64,000 nucleotides of DNA, taken from assembly GCF_056712565.1 (NCBI RefSeq), contig NZ_CM160072.1; one strand, 5' to 3'. The translations under genes were made by a program, and so were the position numbers. Numbering within the stretch: the stretch's first letter is position 1; every line of letters begins with the position of its first letter. Below the pieces are notes generated by a model. The model was not told the origin of the DNA and did no database searches. It was given only the letters and a program-made list of their open reading frames with translations. Below are positions 46,051-48,831 of the stretch, one piece after another.

Positions 46051-46073
46051 GTATAACAGGTATAAAGGTATAC
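46051..46073 (+). promoter_or_regulatory. Nan box: three direct GGTATA repeats (NanR operator type) upstream of yjhB
   Basis: ggtataacaggtataaaggtata read directly about 410 bp upstream of the yjhB start. Confidence 0.65.
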
Positions 46074-46483
46074 AGAAAAGCAAAGAAATACTGCAAAGGA
46101 AAACAGCTATAACGTAAGCTAAAGTAATAACCTCTCAGTCTTTCCTCATTTGACGAAGGGAGTTTTATTCAACCTGAACGGACTACGAAAATGAGCACAA
46201 TGAATAAGTCAATTTTTGAAGCAGGGTTGAACTGTGCCAGTGGTGGAATATCTGGCGAACATTGTTTTTTGTTGGTGACCCAAAACTGTAGGTGGGTATC
46301 AGTTTTATCTTTCATAGAGTGAAATATGTTAAGAAGAAATGGAGGAAAAGATTGTACTGATTAGGTATTGATAACAATCAATAGTACTGGCGTATTTGAA
46401 GACAATATAATTATTTCTGGATATTGTTGAGGCTCCCTAATATTTACTTTAAGGGCTATATTAGAATAACACAGGAAACAAAT

Positions 46484-47701
46484 ATGGCAACAGCATGGTA
46501 TAAACAAGTTAATCCACCACAACGGAAAGCTCTTTTTTCCGCATGGCTTGGATATGTATTTGATGGCTTTGATTTTATGATGATATTTTACATTCTTCAT
46601 ATTATAAAAGCAGATCTTGGCATTACGGATATTCAGGCTACTTTAATAGGGACAGTGGCCTTCATAGCCAGACCTATTGGAGGTGGTTTTTTTGGTGCCA
46701 TGGCTGATAAATATGGTCGTAAGCCAATGATGATGTGGGCAATTTTCATTTACTCAGTCGGAACAGGCCTTAGCGGTATTGCTACAAACTTATATATGCT
46801 CGCAGTTTGCCGTTTTATTGTTGGCTTAGGGATGTCTGGTGAATATGCATGTGCTTCAACTTATGCGGTAGAAAGTTGGCCTAAAAATCTTCAATCTAAA
46901 GCTAGTGCTTTTTTGGTAAGTGGTTTTTCTGTTGGAAATATTATTGCGGCACAAATAATCCCTCAGTTTGCTGAAGTATATGGATGGAGAAACTCTTTTT
47001 TTATAGGCCTGTTACCAGTTTTACTAGTTCTTTGGATCAGAAAAAGTGCTCCAGAAAGTCAGGAGTGGATTGAAGATAAATATAAGGATAAATCAACATT
47101 TTTGTCTGTCTTCAGAAAACCACATCTTTCAATCTCTATGATCGTTTTCCTCGTCTGTTTTTGTCTATTTGGTGCAAACTGGCCGATAAACGGACTACTT
47201 CCTTCCTACCTGGCAGATAATGGAGTTAATACAGTGGTCATTTCAACTCTGATGACAATAGCAGGTTTAGGAACACTGACAGGTACAATATTTTTTGGTT
47301 TTGTTGGTGATAAGATTGGTGTAAAAAAAGCCTTTGTAGTCGGTCTAATAACTTCATTTATTTTCCTTTGTCCTCTTTTTTTTATTTCTGTGAAAAACTC
47401 TTCTCTTATAGGATTATGTCTCTTTGGATTAATGTTTACAAATTTAGGTATTGCAGGGTTGGTTCCAAAATTTATATATGATTACTTTCCAACAAAATTA
47501 AGAGGATTAGGGACCGGTCTTATTTATAACTTAGGGGCAACTGGAGGAATGGCCGCACCTGTATTAGCTACATACATTTCAGGATATTATGGCTTAGGTG
47601 TTTCATTATTCATTGTTACGGTTGCATTCTCTGCCTTATTAATTTTGTTAGTTGGTTTTGATATTCCAGGTAAAATTTATAAACTATCCGTGGCTAAATG
47701 A
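46484..47701 (+). CDS. yjhB: MFS transporter (sialic-acid-derivative transporter family)
   Basis: 405 aa from MATAWYK (RBS aggaaaca); 12-TM MFS. Confidence 0.85.
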   Translation: MATAWYKQVNPPQRKALFSAWLGYVFDGFDFMMIFYILHIIKADLGITDIQATLIGTVAFIARPIGGGFFGAMADKYGRKPMMMWAIFIYSVGTGLSGIATNLYMLAVCRFIVGLGMSGEYACASTYAVESWPKNLQSKASAFLVSGFSVGNIIAAQIIPQFAEVYGWRNSFFIGLLPVLLVLWIRKSAPESQEWIEDKYKDKSTFLSVFRKPHLSISMIVFLVCFCLFGANWPINGLLPSYLADNGVNTVVISTLMTIAGLGTLTGTIFFGFVGDKIGVKKAFVVGLITSFIFLCPLFFISVKNSSLIGLCLFGLMFTNLGIAGLVPKFIYDYFPTKLRGLGTGLIYNLGATGGMAAPVLATYISGYYGLGVSLFIVTVAFSALLILLVGFDIPGKIYKLSVAK

Positions 47702-47712
47702 TTGGAGGCTTT

Positions 47713-48831
47713 ATGATTAATTATGGCGTTGTTGGTGTTGGATACTTTGGCGCTGAATTAGCTCGTTTTATGAATATGCATGATAATGCAAAAATTACAT
47801 GTGTATACGATCCTGAAAATGGAGAAAATATTGCCCGTGAATTGCAGTGTATCAATATGTCAAGCTTGGATGCTTTAGTCTCAAGTAAATTAGTCGATTG
47901 CGTGATCGTAGCCACCCCAAATTATCTGCATAAAGAACCAGTAATTAAAGCAGCAAAGAATAAGAAGCATGTTTTTTGTGAAAAACCAATTGCATTAAGT
48001 TATGAAGATTGTGTGGATATGGTCAAAGCGTGTAAAGAAGCTGGTGTGACCTTTATGGCCGGGCATATTATGAATTTTTTCAATGGGGTTCAATATGCAC
48101 GGAAGTTAATTAAAGAAGGTGTTATCGGCGAAATATTATCATGTCATACTAAGAGAAATGGCTGGGAAAACAAACAAGAGAGACTTTCCTGGAAAAAGAT
48201 GAAAGAACAATCTGGTGGACATCTATATCATCATATACATGAGTTAGATTGTGTTCAGCATTTACTTGGAGAAATACCAGAGACGGTTACTATGATTGGT
48301 GGAAATTTGGCCCATTCTGGTCCAGGATTTGGCAATGAAGATGATATGTTATTTATGACCTTGGAATTCCCGTCAGGAAAACTAGCAACCTTAGAGTGGG
48401 GGAGTGCATTTAACTGGCCGGAACATTATGTCATCATCAATGGAACTAAAGGCTCTATTAAAATTGATATGCAAGAAACAGCAGGGTCACTTAGGATTGG
48501 CGGTCAGACAAAGCATTTTTTGGTCCATGAAACACAAGAAGAAGATGATGATCGTCGGAAAGGCAATATGACCTCAGAAATGGATGGCGCTATAGCATAT
48601 GGTCATCCAGGAAAAAAAACACCATTATGGCTTGCCAGTTTAATAAGAAAGGAGACGTTATTCCTCCATAATATCCTCTGTGGTGCAAAACCTGAAGAAG
48701 ATTATATTGACCTTCTCAATGGTGAGGCGGCCATGTCGGCGATTGCTACTGCTGATGCTGCCACTCTTTCAAGATCGCAGGACAGGAAAGTGAAAATCAG
48801 TGAGATCATTAAACATACATCAGTAATGTAA
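47713..48831 (+). CDS. yjhC: Gfo/Idh/MocA-family NAD-dependent oxidoreductase
   Basis: 372 aa from MINYGVVGVGYFG (Rossmann GxGxxG; RBS ggagg). Confidence 0.85.
   Translation: MINYGVVGVGYFGAELARFMNMHDNAKITCVYDPENGENIARELQCINMSSLDALVSSKLVDCVIVATPNYLHKEPVIKAAKNKKHVFCEKPIALSYEDCVDMVKACKEAGVTFMAGHIMNFFNGVQYARKLIKEGVIGEILSCHTKRNGWENKQERLSWKKMKEQSGGHLYHHIHELDCVQHLLGEIPETVTMIGGNLAHSGPGFGNEDDMLFMTLEFPSGKLATLEWGSAFNWPEHYVIINGTKGSIKIDMQETAGSLRIGGQTKHFLVHETQEEDDDRRKGNMTSEMDGAIAYGHPGKKTPLWLASLIRKETLFLHNILCGAKPEEDYIDLLNGEAAMSAIATADAATLSRSQDRKVKISEIIKHTSVM

Follow-up and report, generated by a model that had tools for sequence, protein, structure and literature searches.

The nanXY (yjhBC) operon and its three-repeat NanR operator on a leuX-associated island of the Escherichia coli chromosome

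Does an operon carried on a mobile island belong to the core sialic acid regulon of E. coli? The question is raised by a 64-kb stretch of the E. coli chromosome (the whole stretch analysed, hereafter the window), in which the initial annotation had described yjhBC on a mobile island behind a three-repeat GGTATA Nan box. The locus is almost certainly E. coli nanXY (yjhBC), the third operon of the NanR sialoregulon. Our own evidence comes from the sequence identity with K-12, from the operator and the gene families, and from the island setting and the genome distribution; annotations were taken from RefSeq strain HS13-1, whose sequence agrees with the window at 99.997% over 32000-62000. The operon and the features just behind it are as follows.

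46484-47701, + strand: nanX (yjhB), MFS transporter (NF008963, Pfam MFS_1, K-12 b4279)
47713-48831, + strand: nanY (yjhC), NAD-dependent Gfo/Idh/MocA oxidoreductase (PDB 6O15, Pfam, K-12 b4280)
48841-48864, + strand: terminator-like hairpin with a T-rich tail, 10 nt past the nanY stop (consensus scan only)
48874-48999, + strand: ythA, small ORF of 41 aa that travels with the cassette (RefSeq annotation)

The two genes lie on the same strand with 11 nt between them, and position 48831, where the initial annotation ended the locus, is the final base of the nanY stop codon. NanX passed the NCBIfam equivalog model NF008963 (786.5 bits against a cut-off of 637), fell under the cut-off of the NanT-type sialate:H+ models (378.8 against 604) and matched Pfam MFS_1 with E = 8e-49. 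NanY matched PDB entry 6O15, 'YjhC', over its full length (residues 1-372, E = 2e-259), and contains the GFO_IDH_MocA N- and C-terminal domains (PF01408, Rossmann, and PF02894). Both proteins are 100% identical to their K-12 counterparts, NanX to b4279 and NanY to b4280, so that the transporter/oxidoreductase pair was rightly named yjhBC. Profile searches (NCBIfam, Pfam) gave no family match for ythA.

The function of the pair has been described for K-12 (Bell 2020, PMC7535918; Kentache 2020, PMC7315737; a 2024 transporter study, PMC10955332). YjhC is an NAD-dependent 2,7-anhydro-Neu5Ac oxidoreductase/hydratase (PMC7535918, PMC7315737), and the initial description of it as an anhydro-sialic acid oxidoreductase agrees with these papers and with PDB 6O15. 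Published work on the identical protein covers the conversion of 2,7-anhydro-Neu5Ac (and Neu5Ac2en) to Neu5Ac by NanY (PMC7535918, PMC7315737), and 2,7-AN is the sole substrate carried by NanX (PMC10955332). Strains deleted for yjhB or yjhC could not grow on 2,7-anhydro-Neu5Ac in the study that gave the genes their new name, nanXY (PMC7535918), and both yjhB and yjhC are likewise required for growth on 2,7-AN and 2,3-EN (PMC7315737).

The operon sits within a genomic island, of which the following elements lie in the window.

38832-38916, + strand: tRNA-Leu(CAA), leuX (ARAGORN; leuX in K-12, tRNA-Leu in HS13-1)
39159-40367, + strand: island tyrosine recombinase/integrase (intB; a pseudogene in K-12; RefSeq HS13-1)
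44516-45941, - strand: IS4, a simple insertion (K-12 mobile-element annotation via alignment)
49551-50797, + strand: IS911, with a frameshifted transposase at 49623-50789 (terminal inverted repeats read)

The leuX tRNA is the attachment site and the left border of the island, known as KpLE2 in K-12, and the integrase gene follows the tRNA. Together with the insertion sequences (IS2, IS600 and ISEc52 beside IS4 and IS911), the low GC content and the variable presence, these elements mark a genomic island whose right border lies beyond the window, as the initial annotation had it. Its further statements that the operon is AT-rich and flanked by IS4 and IS911 were also borne out: the 1-kb bins covering 46001-49000 have GC contents of 0.365, 0.349 and 0.386, whereas the remainder of the window is at about 0.50, and IS4 and IS911 lie upstream and downstream of the operon, respectively. 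The IS4 transposase gene insG occupies 44529-45875, and the element ends 108 bp short of the Nan box. A 12-bp target duplication, ATCTTGGTTCTG, stands on both sides of IS4 (44504-44515 and 45942-45953); target duplications of IS4 are 11-13 bp long. Strain RIVM_C040348 has an empty site with uninterrupted sequence and one copy of ATCTTGGTTCTG. The operon was found in 1133 of 5426 complete genomes and is accessory, being present in about 15-21% of isolates. Lying among IS remnants in the leuX island, the nanXY cassette is AT-rich DNA of horizontal origin.

Between IS4 and the nanX start codon we located four features.

45976-46072, + strand: promoter/operator module homologous to the nanC and nanA promoters (three-way alignment)
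46006-46025, inside the promoter module: perfect 20-bp palindrome TAACAAAACGCGTTTTGTTA, overlapping the right half of a CRP-like site
46050-46072, + strand: NanR operator (Nan box), GGTATA-ACA-GGTATA-AA-GGTATA, repeats 3 and 2 nt apart
46073-46483, + strand: AT-rich stretch of 411 nt from the operator to the nanX start codon, presumed 5' leader

A Nan box was defined as three GGTATA direct repeats with 2-3 nt between them (PMC3658417, PMC8012715), and this arrangement is present at 46050-46072, one base earlier than the start of 46051 given before. The 23-mer GGTATAACAGGTATAAAGGTATA occurs as a single copy in the 64-kb window, on the + strand, and stays the sole match even when 2 mismatches are allowed; the generalised pattern GGTATA-N2-3-GGTATA-N2-3-GGTATA is likewise unique. 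None of 100 dinucleotide-preserving shuffles contained a match to GGTATAACAGGTATAAAGGTATA. Because lone GGTATA hexamers are not enriched in the window (22 found, 16 expected), the Nan box signal lies in the tandem arrangement. When compared with the experimentally defined K-12 operators, the Nan box was identical to that of nanA at 23 of 23 positions and to that of nanC at 21 of 23. Horne et al. (2021) listed yjhBC among three operons carrying the GGTATA-repeat operator, which is bound cooperatively by three NanR dimers and from which Neu5Ac attenuates binding (PMC8012715). The proposed NanR operator architecture upstream of the MFS/oxidoreductase pair is therefore confirmed. The link from the island operon to the core sialic acid regulon also holds, but it is not new: Kalivoda 2013 (PMC3807447), as cited in later papers, already places yjhBC under NanR control, and the operon has been a sialoregulon member since 2013.

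Between the Nan box and the nanX ATG downstream of it lie 411 nt, so that the box is not immediately in front of the gene. This AT-rich gap would fit a reading in which the box is a mere relic or has arisen by chance and the operon is effectively silent (for example through H-NS) or served by a promoter nearer the ATG, with NanR playing no real part. Two further results point the same way. A scan with the generic sigma-70 consensus under stringent criteria did not call the nanX promoter at the Nan box, and genomic SELEX with Neu5Ac recovered nanC/fimB as the only stable NanR target, the paper listing yjhBC in the regulon from databases only (PMC5934670). The miss in the sigma-70 scan is, however, what one would expect of a CRP-dependent promoter whose -35 element is poor. 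Chance is excluded by the shuffles and by the identity with the nanA operator, and about 95 bp of flanking promoter are homologous across the nanX, nanA and nanC operons, so that the surroundings of the box match two bona fide NanR/CRP promoters. In K-12, with identical DNA, YjhC activity was nil in the wild type on LB and present in a nanR deletion strain (PMC7315737), and a PnanX reporter responded to Neu5Ac with a low background and the top proportional activation among the sensors tested (bioRxiv 10.1101/2024.10.23.619804). A relic or chance Nan box is thus largely refuted, and we regard it as highly improbable.

The promoter module itself contains a CRP-like site, TGTGA-N6-TAACA, at 45995-46010, 40 nt upstream of the Nan box, and a -10-like TATAAC at 46052-57 within the first GGTATA repeat. 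From the spacing we infer that this TATAAC is the nanX -10 and that transcription starts near 46064; the spacing likewise suggests that the promoter depends on CRP. The module is 84% identical over 77 nt to the DNA upstream of K-12 nanC, and in genomes without nanXY the nanC promoter matches it at 81-85%.

What NanR would do at this promoter, how Neu5Ac would induce it, and the substrate and enzymology of the products are here taken over from published work on K-12, where the sequence is identical. A CRP-assisted sigma-70 promoter would drive nanXY, with the -10 apparently inside the first GGTATA repeat. NanR would act in trans, three dimers settling cooperatively on the three GGTATA repeats and blocking the promoter; nanR is outside the window and in K-12 lies next to nanA, about 1.1 Mb off. 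Binding of Neu5Ac to NanR would weaken its hold on the DNA and derepress nanXY. NanX, as an MFS symporter, would then import 2,7-anhydro-Neu5Ac freed by the intramolecular trans-sialidases of other gut bacteria, and NanY, with a tightly bound NAD+, would turn it into Neu5Ac by oxidation, rehydration and re-reduction of the sugar. The Neu5Ac so formed would enter the core NanATEK pathway. We found nothing substantive against this nanXY/NanR explanation, which we hold with very high confidence.

Kentache et al. found that Neu5Ac derepresses NanR, while 2,7-anhydro-Neu5Ac and Neu5Ac2en appeared unable to do so, and that growth on 2,7-anhydro-Neu5Ac occurs only without NanR or with Neu5Ac (PMC7315737). 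In contrast, Bell et al. reported growth of the wild type on 2,7-anhydro-Neu5Ac (PMC7535918). The two studies thus disagree on whether the wild type grows on 2,7-anhydro-Neu5Ac alone.

Their conflict leaves room for strain- or condition-dependent control, in which NanR would be one layer and a second factor, acting through the palindrome at 46006-46025 or through the leader, would tune nanXY to anhydro-sialic acid or another signal. The palindrome TAACAAAACGCGTTTTGTTA is improbable by chance: the window holds 2 perfect palindromes of at least 20 bp, this one included, and shuffles predict 0.11 per window. It is kept in K-12 and in a 98% variant, where it is intact despite 10 other substitutions in the upstream region, and the homologous stretch of nanC is not palindromic. 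On the other hand, there is no adjacent regulator gene, the palindrome overlaps a half-site of the CRP-like sequence and may be merely part of it, and one conserved palindrome among nearly clonal sequences is weak evidence. The absence of derepression by 2,7-AN or 2,3-EN (Kentache et al., PMC7315737) and the plain character of the leader described below also argue against a second factor, which we consider improbable. More broadly, a second, undescribed control element beside the NanR operator, whether the nanX-specific palindrome TAACAAAACGCGTTTTGTTA or the 411-nt leader, appears doubtful; if it were real, it could explain why laboratories disagree on growth on 2,7-anhydro-Neu5Ac without added Neu5Ac. 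A text search of the literature, in which sequences printed in figures are not indexed, returned no match for the operator and palindrome strings, a result that says little about whether they have been described.

The gap between operator and ATG is unusually long beside the 37 nt at nanA. An Rfam scan of 45800-49200 gave no match at E up to 1, and a 437-nt leader folded no better than its shuffles (z = +1.2), so that a riboswitch or structured RNA leader is unsupported. The leader and the upstream and downstream flanks of the cassette had no tblastx or blastn match in the nanY loci of 80 other species, and the leader is not recognisable as a gene remnant from other nanY lineages. Past the operator, the nanX and nanC leaders have in common a marginal 28-nt match (E = 0.002). 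Small ORFs exist in the leader, for example one of 43 aa at 46191-46322; by eye they have no convincing ribosome-binding site, and none is annotated in K-12. The palindrome TAACAAAACGCGTTTTGTTA and the long leader, which is also present in nanC, are two features for which we found no explanation and which may interest specialists.

A NanR site may also act at a distance, and the site near nanC, treated as controlling both nanCMS and fimB (PMC5934670), is the precedent for a reading in which the present site would chiefly regulate a neighbour over a long distance and not nanXY. This precedent is the one point in its favour. In the ancestral order, which lacks IS4, the DNA upstream (43863-44515) contains just a transposase fragment or yjgZ on the same strand, with no divergent gene, IS4 now stands between the NanR site and everything upstream, and a direct effect on YjhC activity has been documented (PMC7315737). 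We find long-range control hardly credible here, and control of nanXY itself by NanR is the reading we retain.

Taken together, the nanXY finding is correct but ordinary, being already known, and the K-12 operator is identical base for base. NanR binding, induction by sialic acid and the growth of yjhBC mutants have all three been published for K-12. With this operon, E. coli can scavenge the 2,7-anhydro-Neu5Ac that other gut bacteria, for example Ruminococcus gnavus, set free from mucins, and the locus illustrates how an accessory cassette gained by horizontal transfer can come under a core repressor. As this biology is in the literature, finding it again in the window adds nothing new; the value here is that of a positive control, in which a real operator and a regulon link were recognised from raw sequence.

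Comparison with K-12 showed how closely the locus follows the known one. Window positions 41939-49884 are 99.95% identical to K-12, and all 542 bp from the IS4 end to the nanX start are 100% identical to K-12 nanXY (b4279-b4280); whatever differs between the two loci lies outside the operon and its control region. In K-12, the island sits at the same tRNA-Leu, IS4 occupies the same site with the same target duplication, and ythA, yjhD and yjhE follow downstream in the same order. The differences lie around the cassette. IS911 is uninterrupted here, whereas IS30 and a fragment of IS600 break up the K-12 copy; the upstream IS2 is inverted and 86 bp away from the position of the K-12 copy; and about 3.4 kb (50794-54236) before the fec operon, with a BCCT transporter gene inside, have no counterpart in the compared K-12 region.

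Within the sialoregulon, nanATEK-yhcH (nanQ) has the identical 23-bp operator, a common TGATCT just before it and a CRP-like site at the same distance from the operator as in nanX. The distance from the operator end to the ATG is 37 nt at nanA, in contrast to 411 nt at nanX. The regulator gene nanR directly precedes nanA, while control of nanXY is exerted in trans; nanA belongs to the core genome, with >99% of isolates carrying it (nanRATEK likewise), whereas nanXY is accessory. The nanCMS operator is identical at 21 of 23 positions, its third repeat reading GGTGCA, and it is separated from the start codon by 418 nt, a distance similar to that at nanX. In K-12, nanCMS lies a few kb past the last island-type genes of the same region, and it is present in about 93% of isolates.

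Outside E. coli, the homologous oxidoreductase is NanOx of Ruminococcus gnavus, Streptococcus and Haemophilus (60-68% amino acid identity among the best 80 species), and the NanOx structures PDB 6Z3B/6Z3C match NanY with E of about 1e-158. No nanY-homologous locus among these best 80 other species has the GGTATA tandem (0 of 80). A reading of low probability is that the CRP/NanR promoter module of about 95 bp was duplicated inside E. coli and so came to stand on a newly arriving low-GC cassette, which, if true, would be regulatory capture by promoter duplication. What the NanOx loci have in common is their logic, a dedicated transporter together with NanOx: other lineages pair NanOx with ABC, SSS or GPH transporters (Bell et al., PMC7535918), and a NanX-like MFS gene, about 51% identical over its full length, occurs among those 80 loci in the Haemophilus-type loci only, where it lies on the opposite strand about 2 kb off.

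The MFS transporter/oxidoreductase pair in the window, which the initial annotation had named yjhBC, is indeed nanXY (nanX, yjhB; nanY, yjhC; b4279/b4280 in K-12). The main features of the region are as follows.

38832-38916: tRNA-Leu(CAA), leuX
44516-45941: IS4, simple insertion flanked by the 12-bp target duplication ATCTTGGTTCTG
46484-47701, + strand: nanX, MFS transporter ORF, downstream of the Nan box
47713-48831, + strand (as nanX): nanY ORF, annotated as 2,7-anhydro-N-acetylneuraminate hydratase

NanX matched the NCBIfam equivalog NF008963 with 786.5 bits (cut-off 637) and scored under the cut-off of the NanT-type sialate symporter models. 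NanY contained both Gfo/Idh/MocA domains and matched the solved structure 6O15 ('oxidoreductase YjhC') over its full length (E = 2e-259). Both proteins are 100% identical to their K-12 counterparts, as are all 542 bp from the IS4 end to the nanX ATG. Megablast of positions 44000-50000 against 5,426 complete E. coli genomes returned matches at 100% identity, annotated as insG (IS4), nanX, nanY and IS911; positions 41939-49884 are 99.95% identical to K-12 MG1655, and positions 32000-62000 are 99.997% identical to strain HS13-1. The end assigned to the operon, 48831, is the final base of the stop codon of the second ORF.

The three-repeat Nan box reported upstream of the pair was confirmed. Its sequence, GGTATAACAGGTATAAAGGTATA, had a single exact copy in the 64-kb window (46050-46072, + strand), starting one base earlier than first given (46051), with no other copy at up to 2 mismatches and no match in 100 dinucleotide-preserving shuffles. 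The box is upstream of nanXY as claimed but is not directly adjacent, 411 nt separating it from the nanX start codon. A relaxed pattern of three GGTATA repeats with 2-3 nt spacers also gave one match. Since single GGTATA hexamers were not enriched in the window (22 observed vs 16 expected) while the triple was unique, the signal is the tandem arrangement.

The region corresponds to the KpLE2/leuX island of K-12. After leuX come an integrase gene, IS2, a pseudogenised phosphoethanolamine transferase gene, IS4, nanXY, ythA and a surface-adhesin E family gene, followed by IS911, more IS elements and the fec operon, so that IS4 and IS911 flank nanXY in the order described. The AT-richness attributed to the operon was likewise evident (GC 0.349-0.386 in the three 1-kb bins of 46001-49000 vs ~0.50 for the window). 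IS4 ends 108 bp upstream of the Nan box and 53 bp upstream of a CRP-like site (TGTGA-N6-TAACA, 45995-46010), thus leaving the promoter intact. In strain RIVM_C040348, the same cassette (8349-12358 of the retrieved locus, matching 43863-44515 plus 45942-49300 of the window at 98% identity) lacks IS4 and has a single copy of the 12-mer. Control of a neighbouring gene at long range by the Nan box is unlikely, since no divergent gene lies upstream, even in this IS4-less arrangement.

The RIVM_C040348 cassette sits in a different chromosomal island, adjoining cdiA/cdiI and pgtP/pgtBC. What recurs there is nanXY with its promoter and an upstream transposase fragment, together with ythA and the adhesin-E-like gene. 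Because transposase fragments bracket it, the nanXY cassette appears, from its sequence, to move as an IS-bounded unit. We found nanXY in 1133 of 5426 complete E. coli genomes (21%), and a published survey reported nanXY in ~15%, nanCMS in ~93% and nanRATEK in >99% of isolates (PMC10088187); nanXY is accessory in E. coli. Among 100,044 species scanned, with one genome per species, no NanY relative outside E. coli exceeded 68% identity, and the best matches (60-68%) were from Gemelliphila (Gemella), Streptococcus, Enterococcus and Pasteurellaceae including Haemophilus. A low-GC donor would fit these data; no genome in the collection scanned is the direct source of the E. coli cassette. A NanX-like MFS gene lay nearby only in the Haemophilus-type loci among 80 nanY-homologous loci of other species (~51% identity over full length, opposite strand). 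Since none of these 80 loci contained a GGTATA tandem, the NanR wiring looks like an E. coli-lineage feature, which most simply would have arisen by acquiring a copy of a nan promoter module.

Several differences from K-12 were observed. The IS2 copy (40529-41859) is inverted and 86 bp off the K-12 IS2K position. The aligned segments overlap slightly at their junctions, which would fit separate target duplications, and the alignment indicates an independent IS2 insertion beside the island integrase gene. Positions 50794-54236 have no counterpart in the K-12 region compared; in K-12, IS30 and part of an IS600 have rearranged the IS911 region. In the window, the features from 50799 to 55698 are a fragment of a DUF2254 gene, a BCCT-family transporter gene that is intact (51200-53197), IS600, part of an ISEc52 and a hypothetical gene. 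In place of K-12 yjgH-bdcA-bdcR, the interval from pyrL to the yjgK/tabA homologue holds an arginine deiminase cluster (~13190-18440; arginine repressor-like gene, YfcC-family transporter gene, argF, arcC, arcA), and yjgL, which in K-12 lies between tabA and argI, is absent. GC drops to 0.364 at 18-19 kb. The core-region tabA/yjgK gene (19121-19573; YhcH/YjgK/YiaL family), paralogous to nanQ (yhcH) in the nanATEK operon, has no Nan box nearby, the sole tandem in the window being at 46050.

The nanX promoter module also contains a perfect 20-bp palindrome, TAACAAAACGCGTTTTGTTA (46006-46025), which overlaps the CRP-like site at its right half. The window holds just two perfect palindromes of at least 20 bp, this one included (0.11 expected from shuffles), and we know of no factor that binds it. 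Its rarity, its conservation in K-12 and in the 98% variant, and its absence from nanC, where the homologous stretch is non-palindromic, could reflect a control layer on nanXY besides NanR, as could the conflict between Bell et al. (PMC7535918) and Kentache et al. (PMC7315737) on wild-type growth with 2,7-anhydro-Neu5Ac. On the other hand, the presumed 411-nt nanX leader (46073-46483) matched nothing in Rfam, was predicted to be no more structured than shuffled sequence and had no detected homologue, and we regard such a layer as improbable. In both accessory Nan operons the operator lies very far from the start codon (418 nt in nanC, minus strand, 45503-45920 of the K-12 region retrieved), unlike in nanA (37 nt).

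Control by NanR itself is well documented. The nanCMS and yjhBC operons were reviewed as NanR-coregulated operons bearing NanR operators, identified from the transcriptomes of nanR-mutant and Neu5Ac-grown cells (Vimr 2013, PMC3658417), and the three Nan operators have been aligned (Horne et al. 2021, PMC8012715). Strains deleted for yjhB or yjhC did not grow on 2,7-anhydro-Neu5Ac, and the two genes were given the name nanXY (Bell et al. 2020, PMC7535918). YjhC turns 2,7-anhydro-Neu5Ac and Neu5Ac2en into Neu5Ac via keto intermediates; its activity on LB was nil in wild type and present in a nanR deletion strain, and neither compound apparently relieved NanR repression (Kentache et al. 2020, PMC7315737). 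2,7-Anhydro-Neu5Ac is the sole NanX transport substrate (2024 study, PMC10955332), and PnanX was the best-behaved Neu5Ac biosensor in a bioRxiv preprint (10.1101/2024.10.23.619804). The NanR EMSA, induction and mutant growth checks are therefore already published, for an identical K-12 sequence.

The operator architecture is that of the other Nan operons. K-12 nanA has the identical 23-mer upstream, ending 37 nt before the ATG, whereas the nanC operator agrees at 21 of 23 positions and reads GGTGCA in its third repeat. Similarity among nanX, nanA and nanC reaches ~75-95 bp upstream of the box, including TGATCT immediately 5' of it and the CRP-like site; nanX and nanC promoters share 84% identity across 77 nt, and E. 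coli genomes without nanXY still match a short promoter stretch through their own nanC promoter. Assuming a class I promoter, with the CRP-like site centred at -61.5, the spacing would place the -10 element (TATAAC, 46052-57) inside the first repeat and the transcription start near 46064, with the operator spanning roughly -15 to +9. A chance or relic Nan box is ruled out by the statistics, the identity to the nanA operator and the K-12 genetics. Taken together, the results support the NanR-regulon interpretation: nanXY is the already known third operon of the E. coli sialoregulon, a textbook case correctly recognised.
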